Made by a program: the position numbers and the translations under genes
Notes under the pieces: generated by a model
What the model saw: only the letters and a program-made list of their open reading frames with translations
What the model was told of the DNA's origin: nothing
Database searches by the model: none
Source of the DNA: a bacterium
GTDB taxonomy: Bacteria > UBA8248 > JACPRG01 > G963555815
Reading direction: 5' to 3'
Length of the DNA stretch: 64,000 nucleotides
Assembly: GCA_965218795.1 (NCBI GenBank)
Contig: OZ244653.1
Coordinates: 1,440,001 to 1,504,000 of the forward strand
Shown here: positions 1 to 13,032 of the stretch, in pieces
Position numbering within the stretch: position 1 is the first letter of the stretch
Layout of the letters: the number at the start of each line of letters is the position of its first letter

Positions 1-80
1 CCTCCGGTTGGGTGTGGAGGGACCCACGCCCATCTGAATAAGAACCCGCGGAGGATGCACCTCGGCGAGGCTCTGTATCC

Positions 81-479
81 TCAACTGTAATGTCCCTGCC
101 CAATCACAATGCCGGTTTCCATCATGGGCTCGTCGATCCGGTTGTACTTGACGTTGTGATCCACCCCGGCGGGAATCCAGATGGCCGTGGTCTTGGTGAA
201 GGTATAGAGTTCGTCGTTGAGAGGCACCTCGACCTCGAATGTGTCCTCTGCACCGACGAACATCAAGAGCTGCGGCTTCGGGTGGTGGTGAATCTCACAC
301 GTGGGATTGGGCTCGGGAAGTTTGGTTCGCCAAAAGACATCACAGAATGCCTCGGCCTCGGGAACCAACTCCGAGCTCATGTAGATGCGAAAAGGCTCCT
401 CTTTGGGCTCTCCGTGGTAGAGGTAGTCGGTGATAATTTTCGGCTCGTCGACGATGTACTTTTCATATTTGCGGGCCAC
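81..479 (-). CDS. Cupin-domain protein (132 aa)
   Basis: Cupin motifs CEIHHHPKPQLLMF and WIPAGVDHN; AAGGAGG RBS upstream of GTG start; co-oriented downstream of hydantoinase B. Confidence 0.8.
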   Translation of the reverse strand: MARKYEKYIVDEPKIITDYLYHGEPKEEPFRIYMSSELVPEAEAFCDVFWRTKLPEPNPTCEIHHHPKPQLLMFVGAEDTFEVEVPLNDELYTFTKTTAIWIPAGVDHNVKYNRIDEPMMETGIVIGQGHYS

Positions 480-582
480 CGTTCAACCCTCCTTATTGAA
501 GTGCAGGGAGCAGACATGTGATGCAACCGAATTGACAAGGCGAGTTCAAGGAAAAGTTTGCGGTCGTTTGAATAACGATTTT

Positions 583-2865
583 CTAGTCGGTTCCCAGCCT
601 CTTGTCCCAAACGGGTTCGCTGCTGGCAAGGACGACCTCGTTTTCGATAAGCGTCGAACACCCAGGACAGATGTACTCGCGAAAGACGACTTCTTCGTCG
701 ATAAAGATTTTCGGATCGACGATTAACGGATTGGCGTCCTCAATGGGACGGTCCTTTCGGACTGCATGATTCTTGTAGTTTTCACTTGCCGGGCCGAGAA
801 CGTGACTACACTTTCTACAAACGACTTGTTTCTTTCCATCCATAGCGAGGTGGTGATCGAGCTGCTGCAAGTCATCACTTTCCGAGGCATTCTGACCCTT
901 TGGTTTCATCTGTGCCCCATTGACTCTTTCATTCCGAATGCGGTCACGCTCTTTTTCTGTTGCCTCCAGGTCAAGCCTTCCGTCTTGGATAACAACCCCG
1001 TAGAACTTGCGGGCCGCGTCGACGGAGACTTTGTCGTTCACGACATCCCCGTAGACCCTTTCCGGAGAGCGGTCAATCGGGTCTCCGAAGCCTCCGCCCC
1101 CGCTCCATGTATGCTCGAAAACATCGGCTTCATGTTCCAAGACCTCGAATTTCTGAGGGAGGTATTCAAGCTCGCCCTTGAGTTGCGACATATCGGCGGG
1201 GAGCTCGCCCCGCTTGAACCATTCCGCAATATCCGAACTGCGGAGCATCTTGTACATCGCGGTATTGGCGGGATATCCGCCGTCAATGCCCAGCGCCGTC
1301 GGGAAGGCTCCCCCAAAAGTGGCGAGGACGAGCTGAATCGGACGACCTTCCGTATCATGCGGAATCCAGCAGGCGGTGGCGCCCATCCCTCCCCGAAACT
1401 CACCCGGTCCGCCTGAATCGGTTGTCTCACGCCGGAAGAGATAGAGAATGGGATAGAAGCCTTCATTGGTTTCTACATTCGGACACTGGCCGGTAATGGC
1501 CGCCATCAACCCCGCTGTGTCAACGCCATCCGCAAAGCTTCGCGCACCCCATCCACCGGCCATGCAGTCCATAATCATGGTGACGAAGGATCGCTTGTTG
1601 TTGTCCAGGCCGGAGGCGATCACTGTCGTCCAAGAACCCACACAGCCGGCGAGCAGTCGATCTTGGAGAGCGGGAACGCTCGAGAGCATTTTGGCAATGC
1701 AGATGTTGGCCGCGTTTGTCGCCGACCACGTTCCACTGATCGATCCCATCGAGACGCCGTGAGGGAATTCGGCGTTGATGATCGTCCCGACCGGCGTATT
1801 GAACTTGAGGGCGCGGTGCAGGCCTCCAAGCGCCCAGGGGATATCGTAGCAGAGCTGGGGCAGGAGGGCGACCATGGACCCTCCAACAGCACCTGCACAG
1901 GTCGAGTTGATCATGCCCACGTTGGGATCCGTTCCCGTAAAGTCAAATTCGAGCTCGTCGCCCCGTTTCCTCACGGTGAGCACGGTTTTGTAGACTCCGC
2001 GGTCCTCGGTCTTGGCCACCTCTTGATACGTTTCACAACACCAAGTGCCGTCGGGGATTTGGCGCAGCCTTTCCCGGAAGCGTTCCTCGGCGTAGTCCAT
2101 CTGTTTTTTCATGACGGACTTGATCGTTGTTGCGCCATACCGCTCCACGAGCTCGAGCATTCGCTGCTTTGCAACGTTGTTGGAGGCGATGTGGGCGCGC
2201 AGATCGAGACCGACGAGAGCCGGCGCGCGCGAGCGGCGGAGGTATACGTCCTCGATGTCTTTTCGAATCTCCCCCCGCTCGACCATCTTAATCGGCGGAT
2301 AAGTCATCCCCTCGGCGAAGTGCTCCTCCGCGTCAATGCACCAAGAGCCGATGTTGACCCCGCCGAGGTCCACCTGATGTATGGTGGAGCCTGTCCAACA
2401 AAACAGCTCGTCGTCGACAAAGACGGGCGAGAGCATCGCAACGTCTTGCGGATGAAGCGCACCGACCCACGGGTCGTTGCAGAGAAACATGTCGTCCGGC
2501 TCGATCCCGGGATTTTCGCTCCGGTGCTCTACCGTCCACTTGACCATAAAGTCCACGTTGGCCGCATGGGGGAGATAATAAGGGCCGATATTCACGATGT
2601 CGCCTATCTCATCGCAAAGCACCACGTTGAAGTCATTGGCGTCGGTGGCCACGGGCGAGCCGGATATCTTCTTCAGGGCCTGTCCCTGCTCATCGTTGAT
2701 CTGCCAAAGCTTGTGCGCCACGACCTCCAATGTAATCGGGTCAACCCGGTGATCCGGATCGTACGGAAAGAGTTTGAGTTTCGGAGAAATGACGATGTCC
2801 TCAGGGCGTTTCCCAATGGAGTGGAATCGTTCAGAGCCTGGAACTTTCAAAATCGTTTTCGCCAT
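583..2865 (-). CDS. Hydantoinase B/oxoprolinase family protein with C-terminal fused acetone-carboxylase gamma-like Zn domain
   Basis: DPITLEVV, SGSPVATDANDF, NDPWVGALHPQD, HQVDLGG, DSGGPGEFRGG, GGGGFGDPIDR motifs; C-terminal CRKC...REYICPGC. Confidence 0.93.
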   Translation of the reverse strand: MAKTILKVPGSERFHSIGKRPEDIVISPKLKLFPYDPDHRVDPITLEVVAHKLWQINDEQGQALKKISGSPVATDANDFNVVLCDEIGDIVNIGPYYLPHAANVDFMVKWTVEHRSENPGIEPDDMFLCNDPWVGALHPQDVAMLSPVFVDDELFCWTGSTIHQVDLGGVNIGSWCIDAEEHFAEGMTYPPIKMVERGEIRKDIEDVYLRRSRAPALVGLDLRAHIASNNVAKQRMLELVERYGATTIKSVMKKQMDYAEERFRERLRQIPDGTWCCETYQEVAKTEDRGVYKTVLTVRKRGDELEFDFTGTDPNVGMINSTCAGAVGGSMVALLPQLCYDIPWALGGLHRALKFNTPVGTIINAEFPHGVSMGSISGTWSATNAANICIAKMLSSVPALQDRLLAGCVGSWTTVIASGLDNNKRSFVTMIMDCMAGGWGARSFADGVDTAGLMAAITGQCPNVETNEGFYPILYLFRRETTDSGGPGEFRGGMGATACWIPHDTEGRPIQLVLATFGGAFPTALGIDGGYPANTAMYKMLRSSDIAEWFKRGELPADMSQLKGELEYLPQKFEVLEHEADVFEHTWSGGGGFGDPIDRSPERVYGDVVNDKVSVDAARKFYGVVIQDGRLDLEATEKERDRIRNERVNGAQMKPKGQNASESDDLQQLDHHLAMDGKKQVVCRKCSHVLGPASENYKNHAVRKDRPIEDANPLIVDPKIFIDEEVVFREYICPGCSTLIENEVVLASSEPVWDKRLGTD

Positions 2866-2878
2866 CTGGATGCCTCAC

Positions 2879-4951
2879 TCACCGAGTTGTTAGACGGACG
2901 TTGCCGTAGGCGTCGATCCGGGCATGCTGGCCGGGATGGATGAGTGCTGTTGTGGCCTCGAAACGGATGACCGCAGGCCCATCGAACTTCATCCCACGCC
3001 GAAGATCACTTCCGTAGATCGCTGTTTCCACCTCTTCTCCAAGTTCACGCCAAAAAAGCATTTCGCGTCCAGTGAGAGCCGCGGATGCGTCCGATTCTTC
3101 CTCATCTTGCTGTTCGATTCGAGCGTTTTGGATATGGGTTGTTCCGAGTACGCGATAGGTCACCACCTCAATTCCGGCCTCTCGGAATCCCGACCCTCTG
3201 CCAAAAACCGCTTCATAACGTCGTTCGAATTCCTCAAGAGCCTGGTCATGGAGACTGGGAGTGATTGTTCCGTTGGGGATCGGGGTGTCGACCTGATGCA
3301 CTTGACCTTTATACCGCAGCTCGAGAACTCGTTGGAGGGAGATGTCATCCGGCTTGGCGCCGGCTTTTGTCATATTTGCGGTCGCCTCTTCCTCAAGGGA
3401 CTGAAAGTGCTCGTTCATGACGTCTACATCAAAGGGCGCGAGAGCGAGATCCGAAACCTGGGTCACGGCTGTCAGATCCGAAACGGCAAGCCCCAATGCG
3501 GAAAAGGCGGACGCGATGTTGCCCAGGGGAAAGATAATCTCCTGGGCCCCCAGTTCACGCCCGAAGGCGCCGCCGTGGAGAGGGCCCGCTCCACCAAACC
3601 CGTAAACGACGAAGTCACGCGGGTCGTAACCTCGCTCAATCGTCATTTTTCGCATCAGGTCGGACATGTGATGATTGGCAATCTCAATGATCCCGGCCGC
3701 CGCGTCTCTGACGCTCATATCGAGCGGGTTTGCAATTTTTTCCTCGATGGCCTTGATGGCCAGTGATTTGTCAAGCTTGATCCGGCCTCCGAGAAAATAG
3801 TCGGGATCGATGTAGCCCAGGACGACATCGGCATCGGTCACCGTCGGACCCTCGCCCCCTTTTCCATAGCAAGCGGGACCCGGATCGGCGCCCGCGCTCT
3901 GAGGGCCGACCCGCAGACGCCCGAGATCAACCCAGGCGATGGAACCGCCCCCCGCACCGATGGATACGATGTCGATCGTAGGGACCAGGAGCGTGTATTG
4001 GTTCACAGTCGATGTCGAAGTGATAATGGGCTCTCCATCGACCACGAGACCCACATCGAAACTCGTCCCGCCGACATCAGCACAAATGATATTTCGATGG
4101 TTCAGTGAAGATCCGAGGAATCGGGACGCTACAACACCTCCAGCGGGTCCGGAGGCCAGAGTGTTGACGGAGCGGCGATCCACGTCCGCCGCCTGCATGA
4201 CGCCCCCCATCGACTGCATCACGAAAAGCGGCGCAGTCAAGCCACGGCCACCCAGGGCGCCCTCGAGCTCCTCGAGGTACCTTGACAGAAGAGGGGCAAT
4301 ATGGGCGTTGACCGCCGTCGTTGCCGAACGTTCGTATTCCTTGATGGCCGTGACGATCTCACTCGATATCGAGGCGTGGATGCCTGGGGCCTCTTCTTCG
4401 ATGATCTCCCGCATCCGTTGCTCATGGCTGCGGTTCTTGAAAGACCACAGAAAGCAGACCCCAATCGCCTCCACGCCTTCGTTCCGTAACGCTCTGACCG
4501 CCTGTCGCGCACTCTCCTCATTCAGCGGTACCACGACCGCTCCCTTGTAATCGATTCGCTCGTGGACCTCTTTGATTCGGGTCTTGGGAACGATGGGCTC
4601 GGGTTTGTCGGTGTACGAGTATTGCTTGAGCTCGGTCTCCGAGAATCCGGCGGACCGGCCGATGATGCGCATCATGGGAAGGGCGTCCCGATGTCCGGCG
4701 GTCGTGATGAAACCGATCTTTGCGCCGGAGCCAGTGATCATGGCATTCGTCGCCACCGTTGTCCCATGGTAAAAATAGTCCAAACCCTTCAAGATGCCGC
4801 GCCCCTGATCGACCGCCTCAACGACATCCATGACTCCTCGCGAGAAATTGGGAGGCGTCGAAGGGCGCTTCGCCACCTCGATCCTGCCCTCATCGTTCAG
4901 GTATACGAGATCGGTGAAGGTGCCGCCGGTGTCCACACCCATGGTGCTCAT
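2879..4951 (-). CDS. Hydantoinase A/oxoprolinase family ATP-binding subunit
   Basis: GVDTGGTFTD, HGTTVATNA, EYERSATT, SGPAGGV, DVGGTSFD, SIGAGGGS, GPQSAGADPGPACYG, FGGAGPLH. Confidence 0.95.
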   Translation of the reverse strand: MSTMGVDTGGTFTDLVYLNDEGRIEVAKRPSTPPNFSRGVMDVVEAVDQGRGILKGLDYFYHGTTVATNAMITGSGAKIGFITTAGHRDALPMMRIIGRSAGFSETELKQYSYTDKPEPIVPKTRIKEVHERIDYKGAVVVPLNEESARQAVRALRNEGVEAIGVCFLWSFKNRSHEQRMREIIEEEAPGIHASISSEIVTAIKEYERSATTAVNAHIAPLLSRYLEELEGALGGRGLTAPLFVMQSMGGVMQAADVDRRSVNTLASGPAGGVVASRFLGSSLNHRNIICADVGGTSFDVGLVVDGEPIITSTSTVNQYTLLVPTIDIVSIGAGGGSIAWVDLGRLRVGPQSAGADPGPACYGKGGEGPTVTDADVVLGYIDPDYFLGGRIKLDKSLAIKAIEEKIANPLDMSVRDAAAGIIEIANHHMSDLMRKMTIERGYDPRDFVVYGFGGAGPLHGGAFGRELGAQEIIFPLGNIASAFSALGLAVSDLTAVTQVSDLALAPFDVDVMNEHFQSLEEEATANMTKAGAKPDDISLQRVLELRYKGQVHQVDTPIPNGTITPSLHDQALEEFERRYEAVFGRGSGFREAGIEVVTYRVLGTTHIQNARIEQQDEEESDASAALTGREMLFWRELGEEVETAIYGSDLRRGMKFDGPAVIRFEATTALIHPGQHARIDAYGNVRLTTR

Positions 4952-4966
4952 TCATCTCCTCCACGG

Positions 4967-6769
4967 TCATTCGACTACGAGATCCACAAATTCGCACGTG
5001 TCCTCCGTGAGATAGGCCAAACCTTTGGTGGAAATCCGGTAATAGGGAATCGTCACGAGGGACACGAATTCGAGGTTCGTCTGAGGTGTTTCCAGTGTAC
5101 AGCCCATGTCGCGCCATGCCTTCAACAGGCTGTCCTGGGCCTTGAACACTTCGTCAAAAGGCAGGTCCGTCGCAAGACCGTTCAGCGGAGTCGGGAGGGA
5201 TGCCGCGACCTTTCCTTTTCGTAATGCGACAAACCCACCGTCCATCTTGATCGTCTCGTTCGCCGCCGCGGCCATGTCTTCATCAGAGGCGCCCACCAGC
5301 ACGATGTTCTGATTGAAAACATTCGCCGTTGTCCCGATGCACCCTTCTCGGAGGTTAAAGCCCTTCACAAAGGCGACGCCCATATCGCCGGTCCCCGAGA
5401 TTCGATCGATCATGCAGATCTTGTTAATGCCTCGGCCGGGGTCCGCCTGGATGGCCCCGTCCACGACCGACAGGGATTCGATCGACTCCGGGGTCTCGAG
5501 CGATCCGTCTCGCGTGGTGATGACGCGGACGTTGACCGTCGCCCCCGAGCCCCCGGGCGCGGCGACCCGGAAATCCTCCGGGCGCAAAACGCGATCGATG
5601 TTCATCGTTCCGTAGAGCCAGTCGGGATACTCCGGGTTTTTGAGCGGTTCCGTCAGCTTTCCGTCTTCCACCCATACCTTTCCGTTCGCCATGACCCTTG
5701 CGATCCGGAAATCCTCGAGATTTTCCACGAAAAGGATATCTGCGTAACGGCCGGGCGCAATCATTCCCATGTCATGGTTGACCCGGTAGAACTCCGCGGG
5801 CTGGATGGTGGACATCTGGATGGCCGTCATGGGCTCCAATCCGTTCCTGATCGCCACTCGAATGACATGATCCATTTGACCGCGTTCCAGCATCCAGTCG
5901 GGCGTGACGACATCGGTGCAGAGCTGGTAGGCGCGAGACGAGTGGCCATGCTTCGTCACCGCGGGGAGAACCTGACGGATGTCTTCGCAGGCGCTGCCTT
6001 CCCTGATCACGATGTACTGCCCCAGCTCCGCTTGTCTTTTGGCCTCTTCGTCGGATACGAGCTCGTGATTGTGCATGATGCCCGCGGCCGTCCAGGCGTT
6101 GGTGATTTTGTCATCGCTCATGCCGGCGGAATGGCCCTGGATCACCTTTCCTCGGCGGAGGCATCCCTCCATCAGGCGGAGCAGATCCCTATCGCGCAGT
6201 TCGCGCTTTAGCATCAACTCAGGGCTGATTTCCTCGATTCCCATGGTTTCCGGCCAATCGAGAGCATCCATCAGATCCTCGATGGTCGGCGCGTTCGGCG
6301 AGGGCGGGAAGCCGATGCCGCGGTTTTGGGTGTAGCACATGGTCGGAACGAGAAAGATGGGCTTGACCGGCGTGGCAAGGCACTCGTCCAAAAAGAACCT
6401 CGACGCCCGGATACCGTTCACAATCGCGTGTCCGTAAAATCCGTCTACGATCGCCGTCGAACCATGGAGCAGCCTGCAGGCGGCAAAGACCGTCGAATTC
6501 GTATAGGTGTGCCACTGGTGACAGTGGGGGTCGATCAAACCCGGGACCAGGAATTTCCCCTCCGCATCGATGACTTTCGTTTTCGAATCAACGGTGTAAT
6601 CGACATCCCCGATCGCAGCGATACGCTCTCCTTTGATCGCAACGCCATCGGAGTGGAGGGTTCCCGTATGCACGTTGACCACTTGGCCATGGGTAATCAC
6701 CGTGTCAGCCGGTTCATAGCCCATGGCCACGTCGATCAGCGCTTCGCGCTCAAGCCCGCCCTCGCTCAT
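4967..6769 (-). CDS. Adenine deaminase (AdeC)-family amidohydrolase, divergent active site
   Basis: LIDVAMGYEPADTVI N-terminus, PGLIDPHCH, QGHSAG, HNHE, IREGS, CTD, GMIAPGRYADI and the AdeC C-terminal domain (GGFVAL, LPTPLNGL, SLVTIP). Confidence 0.88.
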   Translation of the reverse strand: MSEGGLEREALIDVAMGYEPADTVITHGQVVNVHTGTLHSDGVAIKGERIAAIGDVDYTVDSKTKVIDAEGKFLVPGLIDPHCHQWHTYTNSTVFAACRLLHGSTAIVDGFYGHAIVNGIRASRFFLDECLATPVKPIFLVPTMCYTQNRGIGFPPSPNAPTIEDLMDALDWPETMGIEEISPELMLKRELRDRDLLRLMEGCLRRGKVIQGHSAGMSDDKITNAWTAAGIMHNHELVSDEEAKRQAELGQYIVIREGSACEDIRQVLPAVTKHGHSSRAYQLCTDVVTPDWMLERGQMDHVIRVAIRNGLEPMTAIQMSTIQPAEFYRVNHDMGMIAPGRYADILFVENLEDFRIARVMANGKVWVEDGKLTEPLKNPEYPDWLYGTMNIDRVLRPEDFRVAAPGGSGATVNVRVITTRDGSLETPESIESLSVVDGAIQADPGRGINKICMIDRISGTGDMGVAFVKGFNLREGCIGTTANVFNQNIVLVGASDEDMAAAANETIKMDGGFVALRKGKVAASLPTPLNGLATDLPFDEVFKAQDSLLKAWRDMGCTLETPQTNLEFVSLVTIPYYRISTKGLAYLTEDTCEFVDLVVE

Positions 6770-6849
6770 TTTCCACTCTCCTCACCCGACGCCTGAACAG
6801 AGCTTGTGATCAGGCTCACGAAGGACTCGGTATCCGAGAACCATAAGGA

Positions 6850-8349
6850 CTAAGCACCGCTCACGAGGCTTAGAACACGCTCTTTATTCGCCTCCTCCCG
6901 TCCCAGGGTTTCAAGGATCTCTCCGTCCCGCCAGATCAAAACGCGATCGCTCATTCCTATTATTTCGGACAATTCATGAGAGACGAAGATCACGCCCGCG
7001 CCATCCTTTGCCAGCTGGTTGACGAGTTTGTAAATCTCCACCTTGGCCCGGACGTCGATACCGCGGGTCGGCTCGTTGAAAATGAAGAGCCTTGATTTGG
7101 CGCTCAGCGCTCTTGCGATCATCACTTTCTGCTGGTTGCCGCCGCTCAGGTACCTGGACAGCGTATTCAACGACGGTGTCTTGATATCGAGTTGATCCCT
7201 GTACATCTGACTGTCTTCTGTTTGTTTTCGTACGGAGAGGAGACCGGTTACGGTATATCGATTCAAGGCCGCAAGCGTGGAGTTGTCTTTGACGGACATC
7301 GGCAAAATGAGCCCCTCGGATTTTCGGTCCGCGGGGAGATAAAAAATCCCCGCCCGGATAGCATCGAAGGGAGAATGAACCGTAAAGGGCTTTCCGAACA
7401 GTTCGATCTCCCCCCAAGGGCGTCTTCCCAATCCCAGGAGCGCCCGAGCGAACGCCTCGTTTCCCGAACCCAGAAGCCCGGCAAAGGATATGATTTCGCC
7501 CGCTCGCAACTCGAAGTTGACGTTTTGGAATCGACCGTCCGGATCGTTGCAGCCCCTGACCTTCAAGATGGGTTCCCCTTTCCGGATGTCCTGCTTCGGA
7601 AAGGGTTCTTGAATGTCCTCGCCGACCATCAGTCTGGGCAGCTCGTCAATCGATGTTTCGCCCAGATCAACCGTGGCAATGACCTGGCCATCCCTGAGGA
7701 TCGTCGCCCGATCCCCGACCCGCTTGACTTCTTCCAGATTGTGAGAGATGTAGATGATCCCGACACCCTCCCTCTTGAGGCCCAGAATGATGTCGAAAAG
7801 ACGCTCGACCTCCTTATCCGTCAAGGCCGCAGTGGGCTCATCCAAGACGAGGACCTTGGCCTCCAATGCCAGGGCCTTGGCGATCTCCACGACTTGCTGT
7901 TCGTGAACGCCGAGCTGCTCGACCCGTCGATTGACGTTCAGCTCGAATCCGAGGCGCTCGACGACGTCGCGCGCGCGCTGCCTGATCGCTTTCCAATCGA
8001 CAAGTCCGTTCGACGTGACGCTCATCCCCAGATGAATGTTTTCCGCCACGGTGAGTTGAGGGATCAGCATGAATTCTTGGTAAACGGTGCAGACCCCGAG
8101 GTCTTTCGCATGAATGGGAGAGCGGATCTGAGTAGGCTCTCCGTTCATGTATATCGTGCCGGTGTCCATGCGCTCGGCGCCCGAGAGAATCTTGATGAGC
8201 GTGGATTTGCCCGCTCCGTTCTCACCGAGGAGAACGTGAATCTCCGAGGCTCTCAATCCGAAACTGACCCCCTTGAGGGCATGGACCCCGGGAAAAGACT
8301 TGTCGATCTTTTCCATGAACAGCAGAGGGTCGCCGTTTCGTTCGCTCAC
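6850..8349 (-). CDS. CUT2 sugar/nucleoside ABC transporter ATP-binding protein (RbsA/MglA type, duplicated NBD)
   Basis: KSFPGVHAL, GENGAGKST, LDEPTAAL, DRKSEGL, LSGGNQQKV, NEPTRGIDV; GTG start at 8349 chosen by RBS (ORF track start 8385). Confidence 0.95.
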   Translation of the reverse strand: MSERNGDPLLFMEKIDKSFPGVHALKGVSFGLRASEIHVLLGENGAGKSTLIKILSGAERMDTGTIYMNGEPTQIRSPIHAKDLGVCTVYQEFMLIPQLTVAENIHLGMSVTSNGLVDWKAIRQRARDVVERLGFELNVNRRVEQLGVHEQQVVEIAKALALEAKVLVLDEPTAALTDKEVERLFDIILGLKREGVGIIYISHNLEEVKRVGDRATILRDGQVIATVDLGETSIDELPRLMVGEDIQEPFPKQDIRKGEPILKVRGCNDPDGRFQNVNFELRAGEIISFAGLLGSGNEAFARALLGLGRRPWGEIELFGKPFTVHSPFDAIRAGIFYLPADRKSEGLILPMSVKDNSTLAALNRYTVTGLLSVRKQTEDSQMYRDQLDIKTPSLNTLSRYLSGGNQQKVMIARALSAKSRLFIFNEPTRGIDVRAKVEIYKLVNQLAKDGAGVIFVSHELSEIIGMSDRVLIWRDGEILETLGREEANKERVLSLVSGA

Positions 8350-8505
8350 CGCTTCCTGCCCTCCCTGACCCTCACGGACGCACATGTCGGATACAGCCTC
8401 GCTGGGGAAGACCCCGCCGTTTCCATCGAACCGCCGCTCATTTGCCCCTCGCGCGCGTGAGCCGAGATCGCCTGGACGAATTTGCAGAATTGATTTGATC
8501 CGGAT

Positions 8506-8545
8506 GGCGCGAAGGCCCCGTCCCTTGGGACGGGGCCTTCGCGCC
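8506..8545. repeat. Perfect 19-bp inverted repeat between the binding-protein and ATPase genes (mRNA-stabilising hairpin or weak terminator)
   Basis: GGCGCGAAGGCCCCGTCCC-TT-GGGACGGGGCCTTCGCGCC, 9 bp downstream of the SBP stop; no U-tract on the transcribed (minus) strand. Confidence 0.8.
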
Positions 8546-8554
8546 GGGTTCGGC

Positions 8555-9682
8555 TTACTTGGTCAGTACGCTGCCGGGCCTCCAGCCCGGAGCGGCGAAA
8601 TCGATACCCACGAAATCGTCATATTGATTGACGTTTTCCGGCGTGTAGGTTCTGATGGGCACGAAAATCTTCTTCGGGACGGGGTTGCCTTCCAGGATGT
8701 GGACCAGCATATAAGTGGCGTACAATCCTTCAAGTGCCGCGCCCTCGCTGAGACCCCAAGCGAACCAACCTTGCTTGAGCAGCTTGATCGATTCCTCGTC
8801 CATATGAACGCCCGTGACCCCGATCTCCCCGGGCTTCTTTCCGGCAGCCCGCAGGGCGGAGATGGCGCCTTTGCACTGGAAGTCCGCCGTGCAAAAAACC
8901 AGGTTCATGTCCGGCCAGCGGGTCAAGGCGTCCTCGGTCAGGCGTTGCGCGATGGTCCGGTCCATCTCGTGGTACCGCTCGCCCAGGATCTTCATCCCGG
9001 GGGCGATCTTCTTGAGGGTCTCCTTGAAACCTTTCGCGCGCTGCTTGCCCCACTCGACGCCGGGAGGTCCGTTGAGCATGAATATCTTGGCATCCTTGGG
9101 CAGTCTCTCGGCGGCGAGCTTCGCCTGGATCACGCCGGTCTCGTAATCGTTGATCGTCGCTCCCGGGGCCTCTTTGTAAGAGGTCGGAATCAAGGCGCTG
9201 GTCGTCGGGATTCCCGCGTTCCAGGCCTTTTTGACCGGCACGGCCACAGCGGAGTAGTCGACCGCCGAGATCACCATCCCGTCCACTCTTCGAGCGATGA
9301 GGTCTTCGATGTCCGAGATCATCTGGCCAAGCTTCAAATATCCTCCCGCGGGACGCAGGTCCATCCTGACACCCATGTCCTTCGCCGCCAGGTAGGCCCC
9401 ATAGGCGACGGCAATCCAATAGGGGTCCCGAACGTGCGGGATCACCATGGCCAAGTGGTACTTTTTCGACGGTTTCGGCCTCCACCAGCCGGTGTCTTCC
9501 CCCTCACGGATCACCCATTCCCCCTTCGGCTCGGTTCCGTACAACTTCCGGTATTGCTCAACCGTCACGTTGCGGCCCATCTTCTTTTGAGCGAAGGCCT
9601 GCGGTGTGAACATCAGCCATGACGAAAGGATGAAACCCAGCGCGATGGCCAAGGTGCAACCCATGAGCAACTTGCCTTTCAT
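8555..9682 (-). CDS. Periplasmic substrate-binding protein, RbsB/TorT-like type I PBP
   Basis: Signal peptide ending PQAFA; IPHVRDPYWIAVAYG, AGGY, LNGPPGVEWGKQRAKGF; AAAGGAGG RBS before ATG at 9682. Confidence 0.9.
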   Translation of the reverse strand: MKGKLLMGCTLAIALGFILSSWLMFTPQAFAQKKMGRNVTVEQYRKLYGTEPKGEWVIREGEDTGWWRPKPSKKYHLAMVIPHVRDPYWIAVAYGAYLAAKDMGVRMDLRPAGGYLKLGQMISDIEDLIARRVDGMVISAVDYSAVAVPVKKAWNAGIPTTSALIPTSYKEAPGATINDYETGVIQAKLAAERLPKDAKIFMLNGPPGVEWGKQRAKGFKETLKKIAPGMKILGERYHEMDRTIAQRLTEDALTRWPDMNLVFCTADFQCKGAISALRAAGKKPGEIGVTGVHMDEESIKLLKQGWFAWGLSEGAALEGLYATYMLVHILEGNPVPKKIFVPIRTYTPENVNQYDDFVGIDFAAPGWRPGSVLTK

Positions 9683-9791
9683 GATCTTCCTCCTTTGTTT
9701 TGAAGAATCCTGACTACGACATCTGTACCCCAAGACCCTTGACCGTCACGGCGCTGAGAGCAGATAGAGAATTGAGGTAGGGTTTAGCTCT

Positions 9792-10793
9792 TTAAGCCTC
9801 ACTGCGATGCCGATATCGATCAACGACGATAGCGCCGATGATAATGATTCCAATAACGATCAACTGAACGAAGGATGAGACATTGTACAGGTTCAAACCG
9901 TTCTTGATGATAGAAAGAATCAATACCCCCAGAATGATCCCGAAGACCTTTCCCTCCCCCCCTCCAAAGGCGATCCCTCCAATGACAGCAGCCGCAATGG
10001 CGTCCAATTCGCGGCCCGTTCCCATATTGGGGGCGCCGATACCTCCCCGGGACGTCAGAACAGCCCCCGCGGCTCCGGCGAAAAGCCCACTGATCGCATA
10101 GGCGAGCGTAGTAACCGGGCGAATCTTGATTCCCGCAAGCCGGGCCGCCTCTCGATTGCCGCCCAAAGCGTACGTGTTTCGGCCCGTAGGGGTTCGCCTG
10201 AGGAATAGATACAGAACCGTAAACCCGAAAGCGCTGACAAAGAGCGCGAACGGGATCCGTCCCACGTAACCGTTTCCCAGGTATAACATGCTGTCGGGTA
10301 TGTTTCCGTGAAGAGGAATTCCATTGGTGACGTATAGCGCCAAGCCCCGGACGGTCGTCATCATGGCCAAGGTCACAACGAATGCATTCACGCTCCACAC
10401 GGAGATGATGATCCCGTTGGCGAGTCCGACCAGCCCCCCCACCAGGATGGCGGCAATGATTCCGGGAATGACACCCGCCACCCACACGGTTTGGACCATG
10501 CAAACACTGGTCAAAGCGATGACAGAGCCGACCGAGACGTCCACGCCTCCAGCAATGAGAACAACCGCCTGTCCACAGGCCAGCAGGGCCAGGGGCGCTG
10601 CCTGCCTCATGACATTCTGGATGTTGATCAAGGTGGCGAAACGCGGTTCAAGCAACGCAAAAACAATGACGAGAGCGACGAGAAAAATCAAGAGACCCCA
10701 CTGAAGCAGGATTTGCCCGATGCTCTGGGATGCATATCCAGCACGGGCCTCCACCATCCCCGCGGCGCTGGCGGGTGTCGGTTGTTGCGCCAT
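9792..10793 (-). CDS. CUT2 ABC transporter permease (RbsC-like)
   Basis: GGVDVSVGS, FVVTLAM, GRNTYALGGNREAARLAGI, ELDAIAAAVIGG; hydrophobic throughout. Confidence 0.95.
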   Translation of the reverse strand: MAQQPTPASAAGMVEARAGYASQSIGQILLQWGLLIFLVALVIVFALLEPRFATLINIQNVMRQAAPLALLACGQAVVLIAGGVDVSVGSVIALTSVCMVQTVWVAGVIPGIIAAILVGGLVGLANGIIISVWSVNAFVVTLAMMTTVRGLALYVTNGIPLHGNIPDSMLYLGNGYVGRIPFALFVSAFGFTVLYLFLRRTPTGRNTYALGGNREAARLAGIKIRPVTTLAYAISGLFAGAAGAVLTSRGGIGAPNMGTGRELDAIAAAVIGGIAFGGGEGKVFGIILGVLILSIIKNGLNLYNVSSFVQLIVIGIIIIGAIVVDRYRHRSEA

Positions 10794-10915
10794 CTTTAGA
10801 TTCCTTTCATCCCTTCACTTCCTCCCAGGAAGATCAGGAGTTGCCTGCTCGGGACACAAGGCGCAAAAATTCTCAAAGCTCGTTTGTGCGCTTGAGTTAT
10901 TAAGATTGGTAGTAA

Positions 10916-10944
10916 GCTATACTGAGTTTGGACTTTCATGTCAA
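10916..10944 (-). promoter_or_regulatory. sigma70-type promoter of the transport/catabolic operon
   Basis: Minus strand TTGACA-N17-TATAGC, about 120 bp upstream of the permease ATG. Confidence 0.7.
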
Positions 10945-11409
10945 GAGAATGTTGCTTCAGACTCTGTTGCGCCACGGATTCGGCCAGTCCGGAGAGTCTT
11001 TCAAAAGCTCTTGAGCGTATCGCAATCTCTAAGAATCAACGCGCTGGCATCAATAAACTCGAAGGGATCGCATGTTCGCCCATGCCATGAGACTTTCAAC
11101 CCGGTTTCCGGCCTTTTTCGTGACACTGGGGTCAGGACCGCCCGATTTGGAACCCGTTGAATCCCTCAGCGGAAAACCCCGCAGCACCACCCTCAAAGCG
11201 ACGGGCCTCCGACATGCCACCCTCGAGCCCTCGTCCCGATGCCGGGCCTTCTCTCAGGTCCGGTCGAAGCAAAGGCGTCTGGTGACAAATTCCCCGTGAT
11301 GAAGTCCGGTGGGCAACCAGGGTGACCGGGTGGACCAGTCAGGATGGACGGCACGGGTGCAGAAGGCTCACGGCCCTGCTTCACAGGTAAGGGGCAGGGA
11401 GGTGAATCA

Positions 11410-11582
11410 TGAGGACGGGGAGCGGTGGCGGCATTACCATCGGATCCAGCCCCGCAACTCCCTGGGTTATCGGCCTCCTGCTCCGCGGGCCATGAATCTC
11501 ACAGCTTCCAGGCATCCCTGGTTTCCGGTGATGGGGGAGCAGTGACGAACTCGAAAAGTGGTACAACATGAGGGGCAGGTCA
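11410..11582 (+). mobile_element. IS3-family remnant (transposase C-terminus plus right inverted repeat)
   Basis: Frame reads WRHYHRIQPRNSLGYRPPAP (IS3 integrase tail WRxxYNxxRPHSSLGYRPPAP); ends GTGGTACAACATGAGGGGCAGGTCA, an IS3/IS407-style IRR ending in CA. Confidence 0.65.
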
Positions 11583-11649
11583 GCCCGGATGTAGAAGCCG
11601 TGAGAGAGGCGGCTCATCGCCACCTCCCCCCGCTTTCAGGGGTTCCGAT

Positions 11650-13032
11650 TTGACGCAGCCTCCGCTTTCGATGATTTACGTTGCGTCTCACGGAGGGTTT
11701 CACCCGGAGCAGTACCCGTTGGGTGGGGGCGCCGCCGTTTCCCGGCAACTCATCGAGGCGTGGGGGGCGGACCCCGGAATCTCCCTTACGCTGCTTGCCC
11801 CGGGATTGCGGCCGCATGACCTTCCTGAGAACGTCCGGTACGTCCGCCTTCAAGTCCTCGAAGACAACGTCCACCCCGCCCAACTGGACCGAAGGGCTTA
11901 TACCCGCTTCTGCAGACGGTTCGAGGACTCCGCTACGTCATTTCTGGACTCCTTTCGGAAGCGGCCCCTCACCAACTCGTTCGCTGTACTGTGCAACGAC
12001 ATTTGTGAGGGGGTGGACTTCAAGCGGGTGGCCGCCATGGGGTTCCCGGTTACGACCATCTTCCACGTGGACGTCGCAGATTTCTTCTCGCGGATGTATC
12101 TCGGCTCGAATGGCCCTCCGGTGAAGCTGGTGAAGTTCTTCCGGTGGGTTTCAAAGGCCCATCTGTCCGGAAGTTGTCCGGACGTCTTACGGTTGGTCTT
12201 CGAGAAGCAGGCGGATTGTCTCCGACATTCTTCACGGATTGTCGTTCCGTCGGACGGCATGGTGCAGACGATAGCGCAGTGCTACGGGAACGAGATGGTT
12301 GAGAAGACGGCTGTTGTGCCCTGGGGCGGCTGGGAAGAGCCCGTATCAGAGTTAGAAGTCGAACAGGAAATGAAGAAGGCCGTCCGAGAGTTCGATCTGA
12401 ACGGGGAAACCACCGTACTGCTGACAATGAGCCGCATTTCTCCCGAGAAAGGCCTCGATCATCTCCTGAAGGCTCTCCGGCTTTGGGAGAAGAAAGCCAG
12501 CGAAGGAGATCAAACTCAATCGCCGAAACCGAAGGACATCCGGGTCCTCATTTGCGGGAGCGCGGCGTTTATGGGTGGTGAATCCTACGCGGCGAAGATC
12601 CGAAGGATGGCTTCGAGCCTGCAACGAATCCGGGTGGCGTTTCCAGGTCACGTCGGCGGAGCGAGAAAACGGGCCTTTTTTCGGGTTGCGGATCTGTTTG
12701 TCGTCCCGTCCCGACACGAGAGTTACGGCCTGACTCTGGTCGAAGCCCTCCGGCAGGGGGTGCCGGTGGTCTCCAGTGCAACCTGCGGGGCTCGTCACCT
12801 GGTGAACGAAAAATACGGCCGGACCATCTCCCTGGAGGGCAAAACCGGGACGGAGCGCCTCCTGAGGGCCATTCAGGATGTAACGGGAAAATCGGAAGTT
12901 TTGCGGTCGATGAAAAATGAGGCGCTCATTGCCGGCCGTGCCATGGACTTCACAACCGGCGCGGACACTCTCAAAGAAGTCATCGCCGGAACGATTGGGG
13001 AAGATCGAAACAAGCCCGGCAAACAGCGATAA
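11650..13032 (+). CDS. Glycosyltransferase family 4 (GT-B) protein
   Basis: PLGGGAAV N-terminal loop, VVPSDGM, SRISPEKGLDHLL, PSRHESYGLTLVEALRQGVPVV (EX7E); start may be ATG 11671. Confidence 0.9.
   Translation: MTQPPLSMIYVASHGGFHPEQYPLGGGAAVSRQLIEAWGADPGISLTLLAPGLRPHDLPENVRYVRLQVLEDNVHPAQLDRRAYTRFCRRFEDSATSFLDSFRKRPLTNSFAVLCNDICEGVDFKRVAAMGFPVTTIFHVDVADFFSRMYLGSNGPPVKLVKFFRWVSKAHLSGSCPDVLRLVFEKQADCLRHSSRIVVPSDGMVQTIAQCYGNEMVEKTAVVPWGGWEEPVSELEVEQEMKKAVREFDLNGETTVLLTMSRISPEKGLDHLLKALRLWEKKASEGDQTQSPKPKDIRVLICGSAAFMGGESYAAKIRRMASSLQRIRVAFPGHVGGARKRAFFRVADLFVVPSRHESYGLTLVEALRQGVPVVSSATCGARHLVNEKYGRTISLEGKTGTERLLRAIQDVTGKSEVLRSMKNEALIAGRAMDFTTGADTLKEVIAGTIGEDRNKPGKQR

Follow-up and report, generated by a model that had tools for sequence, protein, structure and literature searches.

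A candidate acquired uptake and catabolism cassette in which a gamma-bearing HyuA/HyuB enzyme is paired with a divergent AdeC-like amidohydrolase

Introduction

Enzymes of the HyuA/HyuB family are defined by their activation of a carbonyl group to a phosphoenol or phosphoimidate, and they include the ketone carboxylases for acetone (Acx) and acetophenone (Apc) as well as the hydantoinases (Hyd) (PMC5214803; this and the other papers cited by PMC number are drawn on for excerpts, and statements about them hold for those excerpts). Hyd complexes have two subunits only (alpha-beta). A gamma subunit is a ketone-carboxylase hallmark: in the part of PMC5214803 considered here, both Acx and Apc contain it and none of the Hyd complexes does. 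It is remote from the active site and its role is probably structural, and a consensus motif for separating carboxylases from hydrolases failed (PMC5214803). ATP-dependent lactamases of the family, namely caprolactamase CapAB, N-methylhydantoinase and the 2-oxoindoleacetate-type gamma-lactamase IaaCE, have the same HyuA and HyuB domain sets and are described in that excerpt without a gamma subunit. There is precedent for HyuA/B lactamases encoded beside ATP-binding cassette (ABC) importers or molybdenum hydroxylases, and for ones that act after a hydroxylase (PMC6733357; IaaCE in PMC8453981 and PMC5214803). Here, we analyze a seven-gene cluster in a 64,000-nt stretch of bacterial DNA (the window, which starts at genome position 1,440,001 of contig OZ244653.1), in which a gamma-bearing HyuA/HyuB enzyme is encoded together with a sugar-type importer and a divergent relative of the adenine deaminase AdeC. 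An earlier note, made from the DNA letters alone, had proposed that these genes form an operon for uptake and catabolism of an N-heterocycle.

Results and Discussion

Gene content of the cluster

The ORF list and a Pfam search place seven minus-strand open reading frames (ORFs), all co-oriented and head to tail, at 81-10793 (coordinates are positions in the window unless given as genome positions). In order of presumed transcription, they encode a permease, a periplasmic binding protein and an ATPase of the CUT2 type, an AdeC-family amidohydrolase, a HyuA-type alpha subunit, a HyuB-type beta subunit fused to a gamma-type domain, and a small cupin, with intergenic spacers of 58, 169, 80, 15, 13 and 103 nt. 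This is the gene set that the earlier note had listed, and the ORFs, Pfam matches and fold predictions agree with it. By the models used, every part belongs to a known protein family and none meets the curated definition of a characterized member, as all curated NCBIfam equivalog cut-offs are missed, widely. These missed cut-offs, together with recurrence of the gene order in another phylum (locus L001, below), bear out the idea of an uncharacterized uptake and catabolism set with deviant parts; the earlier observation was largely right, except for a TorT likeness of the binding protein and a supposed insertion-sequence scar, both of which are discussed below. The central point that emerges from our sequence comparisons is that a gamma-bearing HyuAB clade is repeatedly paired with a divergent AdeC-like amidohydrolase.

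The alpha subunit looks lactamase-like and the beta-gamma subunit carboxylase-like

The hyuA gene (2879-4951, minus strand) encodes a 690-aa ATP-binding alpha subunit from the family of hydantoinases and ketone carboxylases with the domains Hydant_A_N, Hydantoinase_A and Hydant_A_C. A gap of 13 nt separates it from its adjacent partner, the gene for HyuB-gamma (583-2865, minus strand; 760 aa), whose product matches Hydantoinase_B (378.6 bits, residues 42-596) and Acetone_carb_G (41.5 bits, residues 673-747; nt ~625-849). The latter match, together with a CxxC...CxxC motif in the translation, confirms the gamma-type Cys4 Zn domain that the earlier note had claimed; without gamma, the beta part is ~650 aa long. 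Of the 46 proteins closest to HyuB-gamma in a large collection, 18 carry the fusion (~759 aa, with PF08882) and the other 28 (~650 aa) do not. No alpha-prime subunit, epsilon subunit or second HyuA-like gene was found in the cluster by ORF list or Pfam.

The two subunits differ in their closest relatives. On NCBIfam models, HyuA scores 578.8 bits with CapA (cut-off 1000) and 414.7 bits with ApcC (cut-off 1500), and its matches to solved structures are N-methylhydantoinase (7hk5, 406.7 bits), the caprolactamase alpha subunit (6yra, 396.1 bits), Apc (386.9 bits) and Acx (330.7 bits). HyuB-gamma scores 218.2 bits with ApcD (cut-off 1500), 201.7 bits with CapB (cut-off 1000) and 22.6 bits with the ApcB model (cut-off 250); among solved structures it matches ApcD (195 bits), the caprolactamase beta subunit (181 bits) and Acx alpha (106 bits). 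By these scores, the alpha subunit looks lactamase-like and the beta-gamma subunit looks carboxylase-like. Because alpha matches lactamases best and beta-gamma matches carboxylases, we give ring-opening hydrolysis about an even chance of being the chemistry of this enzyme, carboxylation a clearly smaller one, and some other reaction a smaller one still. The earlier description as an ATP-dependent ring-opening enzyme had assumed the ring opening, and the Zn gamma domain marks ketone carboxylases (PMC5214803).

One alternative is that alpha/beta-gamma is an ATP-dependent carboxylase of a ketone or enolizable carbonyl, as acetone and acetophenone carboxylases are, and not a lactamase. The imported compound, or a carbonyl produced from it by the AdeC-like hydrolase or by a short-chain dehydrogenase/reductase (SDR), would then be carboxylated to a beta-keto acid destined for central metabolism. 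Like Acx and Apc, the cluster encodes an alpha subunit that binds ATP, a beta subunit and a gamma element with a Cys4 Zn site, in alpha-beta-gamma order. Gamma is fused to beta in the cluster, whereas in actinobacterial orthologues it is a separate gene (in L037, a 105-aa gene after beta), giving the alpha-beta-gamma order of acxABC. ApcD is the best match of the beta part (218 bits NCBIfam, 195 bits PDB), and its ~650 aa are nearer to Apc-beta than to Hyd-beta by the length criterion of PMC5214803. SDR and HisD-like dehydrogenases, which could make carbonyls, are frequent partners of the orthologues, and the other operon in which the AdeC-like gene occurs holds an acetoacetate-decarboxylase-family gene (i.e., the reverse chemistry). 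However, the alpha subunit is nearer to lactamases (CapA 579 vs ApcC 415 bits; N-methylhydantoinase 407 and caprolactamase 396 vs Acx 331 bits), every carboxylase equivalog cut-off is missed widely (ApcD 218/1500, ApcC 415/1500), and the cluster lacks alpha-prime and epsilon subunits. Its beta part also differs in length from Acx beta (~720 aa), and its neighbors are an ABC importer and C-N hydrolases rather than a CoA ligase. Gamma is also far from the active site and probably structural (PMC5214803), and the RidA proteins and further amidohydrolases found as partners fit C-N chemistry better. We consider a carboxylase doubtful, if a serious contender.

Ring-opening hydrolysis, which we favor, has its own misfits among the ATP-dependent lactamases. 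They provide the best HMM and PDB matches of the alpha subunit (CapA 579 bits; 7hk5 407 bits; 6yra 396 bits), but the 1000-bit cut-offs of CapA and CapB are missed (579 and 202 bits), no gamma subunit accompanies the lactamases described in the excerpt of PMC5214803, and the cluster beta is ~70 aa longer than Hyd-beta. The opine-lactam regions of Ti plasmids, likened here by description and not by sequence, also couple import to ATP-dependent opening of a polar lactam derived from a sugar or amino acid (PMC6733357); they use other importer families, and no gamma domain is reported for them in the part of that paper considered. A literature search, with supplements outside its scope, returned no description of a HyuB-gamma fusion or of this gene combination, and the terms "fused", "fusion", "clade" and "lactamase" are all absent from PMC13677872; the supplementary trees of PMC5214803 might already contain gamma-bearing clades other than Acx and Apc. 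The genome holds 10 HyuB-type genes, most of which reach into the gamma domain, and same-family relatives hold up to 12.

The gene combination recurs in other genomes

The order permease-binding protein-ATPase-AdeC-like-HyuA-HyuB-gamma is found again, at 69-81% identity, in one Hyphomicrobiales metagenome-assembled genome (MAG; locus L001 = L030). Downstream in L001 are a luciferase-like monooxygenase, two RidA genes and a solo large subunit of the xanthine dehydrogenase (XDH) family (42% identical to the one adjacent to our cluster), and divergent genes upstream encode HisD-like, SDR, cyclase-family and acyl-CoA-dehydrogenase-like proteins. Two further pairings were found: in L029, a HyuA/HyuB-gamma pair of a second subfamily (41% identical) lies directly upstream of the AdeC-like gene, and in L036 an AdeC-like gene (61% identical) lies 5 kb from HyuAB. 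The neighborhood check proposed in the earlier note, a joint occurrence of AdeC-like, HyuA/HyuB-gamma and CUT2 genes, is thus positive in L001 and extended by two other pairings, but AdeC-like is not an obligatory partner.

HyuB-gamma orthologues (75-87% identical) occur in 10 loci, from Alphaproteobacteria, Gaiellaceae, Solirubrobacteraceae and Conexibacter (the latter groups being Actinobacteria), and HyuA adjoins HyuB-gamma in all 10. Orthologous permeases (76-81% identical) are present in L001/L030, L033 and L035 and orthologous binding proteins (74-76%) in L030, L033 and L035; in L033 and L035 this importer directly abuts HyuA with no AdeC-like gene between, and L031, L034 and L039 have other CUT2 sets. 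HyuB-gamma is immediately followed by another amidohydrolase in L033 and by a thiamine pyrophosphate enzyme and a xylose-isomerase-like barrel in L035. Across 13 sources, the partners of HyuAB-gamma orthologues are RidA (9/13), LacI (5/13), SDR (5/13), HisD-like (4/13) and luciferase-like monooxygenase (2/13). From these neighborhoods, the conserved core elsewhere is a CUT2 importer with HyuA, HyuB-gamma and RidA, often with LacI, HisD-like and SDR proteins.

The AdeC-like protein has orthologues (75-81% identical) in 29 loci, mostly of Alphaproteobacteria MAGs, and orthologous HyuAB genes accompany it only in L001. About 14 of the 29 share a different operon, without HyuAB, that comprises a GFO/IDH/MocA gene, two luciferase-like monooxygenases, an acetoacetate-decarboxylase-family gene, a class-III aminotransferase and a CUT1 importer. 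Conversely, three of the 10 genomes with HyuB-gamma orthologues have an AdeC-like orthologue, and 22 of the 27 other AdeC-like genomes searched carry one HyuB-gamma-type gene at 41-43%, usually unlinked (these MAGs are kin and not independent).

Such a distribution could mean that the cluster is a mosaic with no shared substrate, in which a sugar-like module of CUT2 importer and HyuAB-gamma gained an unrelated AdeC-like gene and landed by unrelated native genes for molybdenum (Mo) enzymes. In L033 and L035, the same importer directly adjoins HyuA and AdeC-like is missing, one MAG holds its AdeC-like and HyuB-gamma orthologues on different contigs (L027, L035), the AdeC-like gene occurs in at least four different neighborhoods, and the Mo-enzyme block on the left flank is older than the insertion (below). 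On the other side, the six-gene order is kept across phyla at 69-81% identity, only 15 and 13 nt separate AdeC-like from HyuA and HyuA from HyuB, AdeC-like adjoins HyuAB-gamma in three arrangements involving two HyuAB subfamilies, and L033 has a different amidohydrolase after HyuB-gamma, as if the role must be filled. A chance assembly of this kind strikes us as unlikely.

The AdeC-like enzyme is a divergent binuclear-metal amidohydrolase

The AdeC-like gene (4967-6769, minus strand) encodes a 600-aa protein with matches to Adenine_deam_C (144.8 bits) and Amidohydro_1 (70.6 bits). When aligned to adenine deaminase Atu4426 (3nqb; HMMER, ~204 bits), it keeps all six residues that bind the binuclear center (HxH, bridging Glu, His, His, Asp), whereas the four ligands of the third metal site are all replaced, by Tyr, Gly, Val and Phe. 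The third site is His122/Glu123/His477/Asp478 of Atu4426, in a numbering that we checked against the chain index. The earlier claim that this AdeC lacks conserved motifs is therefore true of the third metal site and wrong for the binuclear center. Two further positions differ, as the residues aligned with His263 and Asp290 of the Agrobacterium enzyme (atuADE) are Ala and Val. In that enzyme, His263 and Asp290 clash with ribose, and the nucleoside-accepting Bsu06560 has Ile and Gly there (PMC8643624). Ala and Val at these positions suggest, at the level of the alignment, that the pocket favors a substrate larger than adenine.

The protein thus shares Amidohydro_1, Adenine_deam_C and the six binuclear ligands with both Atu4426 and YerA (Bsu06560), and it shares with YerA, an N6-methyladenine/adenosine deaminase, small residues where atuADE has His263 and Asp290. 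It differs from the adenine deaminases in its distance from them (~204 bits to 3nqb and a score below the TIGR01178 cut-off, with all third-metal ligands replaced), in forming its own subfamily that is conserved at 75-81% across phyla, and in traveling with dehydrogenases and sugar-type importers rather than with purine genes. In the ESM Atlas, the matching clusters are labeled only "adenine deaminase".

These data bear directly on ordinary purine salvage (i.e., a normal adenine deaminase beside a ribose importer), for which the family assignments and the intact binuclear site speak. On the adenine deaminase equivalog model TIGR01178, however, the protein scores about 310 bits (310.3-310.5) vs a cut-off of 472.5; it is the lowest-scoring (310.3 bits) of four AdeC-family genes in the genome, and a separate gene at genome position 129613 passes the cut-off with 613.6 bits. 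The third metal site and two pocket residues differ, the binding protein scores 71.8 bits on the RbsB model vs a cut-off of 337, and the gene is embedded between the importer and HyuAB. Purine salvage would be a very surprising outcome.

A native paralogue of the AdeC-like gene (41-42% identical; genome 2187473-2189230) shares an operon with genes for an SDR and for the permease, binding protein and ATPase of a CUT2 importer (L140 9260-15948). Of 23 genomes from a different genus, in another family of the phylum, 17 keep this native operon (L139 in relative G013), so that AdeC-like enzymes are linked to sugar-type importers repeatedly; the paralogue operon may be the better model for such pairings. 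In the relative G006 (L136, contig 50, 7524-17806), an AdeC-like orthologue (75%) is convergent with genes for an amidase, an SDR, an M24 peptidase, an Fe-alcohol dehydrogenase and a GCV_T-SHMT fusion, which makes a third, distinct setting for this enzyme.

The importer is of the sugar type

The permease (9792-10793, minus strand; 333 aa; BPD_transp_2, 133 bits) scores 229.5 bits with AraH and 210.7 bits with RbsC on NCBIfam, both under the cut-offs. The ATPase (6850-8385, minus strand; 511 aa) has two nucleotide-binding domains, seen as two ABC_tran stretches, and scores 476-486 bits with the xylose, arabinose and ribose ATPase models, again under all cut-offs. The binding protein is a 392-aa ORF (8555-9733, minus strand; Peripla_BP_4, 146 bits); because a signal-peptide-like stretch begins at internal Met 18, its true start is probably at 9682. 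The cluster thus has the layout of the CUT2 monosaccharide importers Rbs, Ara and Xyl (one BPD_transp_2 permease, one Peripla_BP_4 binding protein and one double-domain ATPase of ~500 aa), but its proteins miss every equivalog cut-off, and ~40 additional residues follow the signal peptide of the binding protein. By every model used, the importer is sugar-type.

The earlier note had called the binding protein TorT-like. A TorT model does score 95.5 bits (cut-off 200), while a second, with a cut-off of 310, gives 64.7 bits; among solved structures, ribose-binding proteins are nearer (2ioy 94.8 and 4yhs 94.3 bits vs 47.8 bits for TorT, 3o1h), and unlike TorT the protein is encoded within an ABC operon and does not adjoin torS. 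With the cut-offs missed and 2ioy scoring higher, we rejected TorT as a specific likeness.

A proposed role in catabolism of a polar ring-nitrogen compound

Our tentative reading, which we hold at somewhat short of even confidence, is that the cluster is an acquired module for catabolism of a polar, carbohydrate-like compound with a ring nitrogen. The substrate class and all catalytic steps are what we infer from the protein families and their partners: the importer is sugar-type, and the partners are carbohydrate-style regulators and dehydrogenases along with C-N-cleaving and imine-handling enzymes, which is why we propose a carbohydrate-like nitrogen compound. The CUT2 importer would take up a small polar molecule of this kind, for which the candidates are lactams of sugars or cyclitols, iminosugars, nucleoside-like compounds and polar N-heterocycles. 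The AdeC-like enzyme, with its intact binuclear metal center, would hydrolyze an exocyclic or amidine C-N bond to release ammonia or an amine and leave a carbonyl (lactam or ketone), which alpha/beta-gamma would activate at the expense of ATP. Activation would be followed by hydrolysis of the ring C-N bond, which we favor at about an even chance, or, with lower probability, by carboxylation of the neighboring carbon. The metal cupin and the adjacent solo Mo-hydroxylase subunit could then act on the product. An enamine or imine product of ring opening fits the RidA partner seen elsewhere.

Several observations weigh against this reading. The gamma rule of PMC5214803 counts against a plain lactamase. 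The AdeC-like gene appears to be an accessory that the core can dispense with (3/10 genomes) and that mostly sits in other surroundings (~14/29 loci in another operon), which raises the possibility that the two enzymes work on different substrates. The cluster also lacks RidA, which in other loci is the partner found most often. Judged by its near-threshold match to a glyceraldehyde dehydrogenase model (below), the solo Mo subunit may act on an aldehyde rather than on a heterocycle. Co-transcription of the cluster is presumed, and the promoter motif falls below the criteria of a consensus scan (below). Finally, source annotations label the HyuB-gamma orthologues only "N-methylhydantoinase B" or "hydantoinase B family".

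The earlier note had inferred a new substrate such as an N-methylated purine or nucleoside. The deviant parts do argue for a new substrate, but the partners point equally to a sugar- or cyclitol-like nitrogen compound. An aromatic N-heterocycle (e.g., a modified purine) is possible, and is favored by the enlarged AdeC pocket, by the Mo subunits that accompany both full-length cassette copies and by the sponge setting, none of which singles it out. A more specific proposal is an undescribed two-step, oxygen-independent route in which a polar N-heterocycle or nucleoside-like compound from the host (e.g., a modified sponge purine or pyrimidine) is deaminated by the AdeC-like enzyme and then has its ring opened by alpha/beta-gamma, on a cassette passed between sponge-associated bacteria of different phyla; we regard this as improbable in so specific a form.

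The note had also likened the cluster to the creatinine route, in which a cyclic amidine is deaminated to a hydantoin that is then opened with ATP (creatinine to N-methylhydantoin to N-carbamoylsarcosine). HyuA matches solved N-methylhydantoinase with 406.7 bits, creatinine is mentioned in PMC8546597 as a host-derived nutrient of sponge symbionts, and the AdeC-like orthologue of G006 has genes for an M24 peptidase, an amidase and GCV_T-SHMT nearby. The analogy lacks its downstream enzymes: neither an N-carbamoyl-amino-acid amidase family, to which N-carbamoylsarcosine amidase would belong, nor a sarcosine oxidase/dehydrogenase family was found in the cluster, its flanks or the orthologous loci (the rest of the genome was not searched). 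The importer and the LacI, HisD-like and SDR partners are of carbohydrate type, a gamma domain is unknown in N-methylhydantoinases in the excerpt of PMC5214803, and G006 itself has no HyuB-gamma orthologue (best match 40%). A creatinine-type route is, in our estimation, very unlikely.

If the coupling between the AdeC-like and HyuAB-gamma enzymes in our preferred reading is real, it would give a first function to two sizeable orphan subfamilies: the AdeC-like clade, conserved at 75-81% across phyla, and the gamma-bearing HyuAB clade, whose many members in Alphaproteobacteria and Actinobacteria have no annotation beyond "N-methylhydantoinase B". The published view of gamma as a mark of carboxylases would be put to the test as well, and a nitrogen-rich compound that is exchanged within sponge holobionts could be identified. 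For now, the cluster is a well-delimited, transferable orphan catabolic cassette of known enzyme families, useful for ligand and enzyme screens.

The cassette is of foreign origin and lies next to a native operon

RpoB of this genome is only 52-61% identical to the 80 loci kept from a species collection, which are spread over many phyla and gave no placement. The cluster was compared with a phylum set of 51 genomes (50 besides this one). The best match to HyuB-gamma in those 50 is 43% identical and a paralogue in the same genome 44%, in contrast to the 75-87% of the alphaproteobacterial and actinobacterial orthologues; the AdeC-like orthologue is present in one of the 50 (G006, 75%). The GC content of the seven genes is 0.544-0.589 vs 0.605 for the genome and 0.611-0.644 for native neighbor genes. 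Near-identical DNA is present in many public runs, four of which are labeled sponge metagenome, and a 22.9-kb contig (~95% identical) is collinear from the second Mo subunit of the left flank to the permease. Since distant orthologues are closer than matches within the phylum, GC is lower and the contig of a near relative is collinear, the sequence data indicate that the block is a horizontally acquired cassette, inserted upstream of a native operon and stable in close relatives.

The earlier note had suggested that the operon may continue to the left of the window, and it does so by one gene. A solo XDH/CoxL-type Mo subunit (MoL1, 782 aa) lies on the same strand, 89 nt beyond the cupin. Its score on the glyceraldehyde dehydrogenase alpha model is 776 bits (cut-off 790), a near miss on which its possible action on an aldehyde rests, and it is a 76% duplicate of a form-II CoxL-type gene that 40 of the other 50 phylum-set genomes carry, in the order FeS-Mo-FAD where examined. 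The next genes leftward, 633 nt on and on the same strand, encode an FrhB-like Fe-S protein, an FAD subunit, a 2Fe-2S subunit and a second Mo subunit (MoL2). This FrhB-FAD-FeS-Mo block is syntenic in the same-family relative G002 (75-85% identical), where it is accompanied by the same divergent enoyl-CoA hydratase, and none of the cluster genes is found within 11.6 kb upstream of the block in G002. Because the block is native and older, the operon extends at most one gene beyond the window, and what lies further left is a pre-existing native operon.

The left flank has several features of its own. In a ~95% identical contig from another sponge-metagenome run, 190 letters replace 208 nt at L141 5577-5786 (genome ~1437377-1437586), a swap that sits between the solo Mo subunit and the FrhB-like gene, at the junction of insert and native operon. 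The coenzyme-F420-hydrogenase-beta-like Fe-S protein (FrhB_FdhB_N/C and a 4Fe-4S dicluster) that heads the XDH-type operon (genome 1431912-1437009; L129 7912-13009) is an unusual electron-transfer partner for a Mo hydroxylase. The genome has 8 CoxL/XDH-type large subunits at E<=1e-150, and same-family relatives have up to 9. Farther left (genome 1425099-1429819; L129 1099-5819) are a UbiD-family decarboxylase, a reductive-dehalogenase-like Fe-S protein (TIGR02486, 113.9 bits vs a cut-off of 160) and an ORF of the size of formate-tetrahydrofolate ligase.

The 5' border, promoter motif and intergenic hairpin

A promoter-like motif read by eye (10916-10944, minus strand) consists of TTGACA at 10944-10939 (-35), a 17-nt spacer and TATAGC at 10921-10916 (-10), ~120 nt upstream of the permease start codon. 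The sigma70 promoter of the earlier note is thus present as a motif, but a consensus scan of 1-11700 does not list it, because the last base of its -10 hexamer is not T. The scan listed 2 sites in this region, fewer than in shuffled sequence (4.5 +/- 1.9), and neither is upstream of the permease.

The note had also placed a scar of an IS3-family insertion sequence (IS) at the 5' border. A search across the genome for a second copy of the 856 bp between the permease and the next gene (10794-11649) found none, the two ORFs of this region contain no transposase domain, and none of the rve (66) and HTH_Tnp_1 (87) matches of the genome falls within 1.425-1.455 Mb. We therefore rejected an IS3-family remnant. 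The genome as a whole is IS-rich, as these 66 rve and 87 HTH_Tnp_1 matches indicate, with several families at 6-7 identical copies, none of them at the cluster. Across the 856-bp gap, a family-4 glycosyltransferase gene (11650-13032, plus strand; Glycos_transf_1, 86.6 bits) is divergent from the cluster.

The stop codon of the binding-protein gene is directly followed, in the 169-nt gap before the ATPase gene, by a perfect 18-bp, GC-rich hairpin without a U tract (8506-8545, minus strand; RNAfold). The gap as a whole folds at -85 kcal/mol in RNAfold, and the hairpin could possibly serve as an intra-operon RNA stabilizer or attenuator. Contigs from RNA libraries (one study, two runs) match the binding-protein gene (99-100% identical), the junction of binding protein and permease, the ATPase gene, the AdeC-like gene (one contig), MoL2, the MoL2/FeS junction and the FAD gene; RNA libraries can contain DNA, and contigs cannot rank expression. 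Among the pieces listed (32 of 255), no contig covers HyuA, HyuB-gamma, the cupin or MoL1, though missing cover proves nothing. Contigs are listed more often on the binding-protein gene than downstream of the hairpin, with the same caution as to ranking.

The last gene encodes a probable metal-binding monocupin

The last ORF of the cluster (81-479, minus strand; 132 aa) matches no Pfam family at threshold (Cupin_2, 15.4 bits vs a cut-off of 27.2). Its AlphaFold model (pLDDT 82.2, pTM 0.75) has 135 PDB matches at E<=1e-3 in Foldseek, the best of which are small cupins (7eqk, MarH, 4.7e-6) with TM up to 0.64, so the cupin assignment of the earlier note has fold support even though the Pfam threshold is missed. 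H64, H66, Q70 and H108 are conserved in an alignment of 13 cupin sequences, and the modeled protein is probably a small monocupin with a metal site formed by these four residues. The family is tiny, with 17 clusters in a collection of 5.8 billion proteins, and a homologue (62% identical) lies near HyuAB-gamma in L037.

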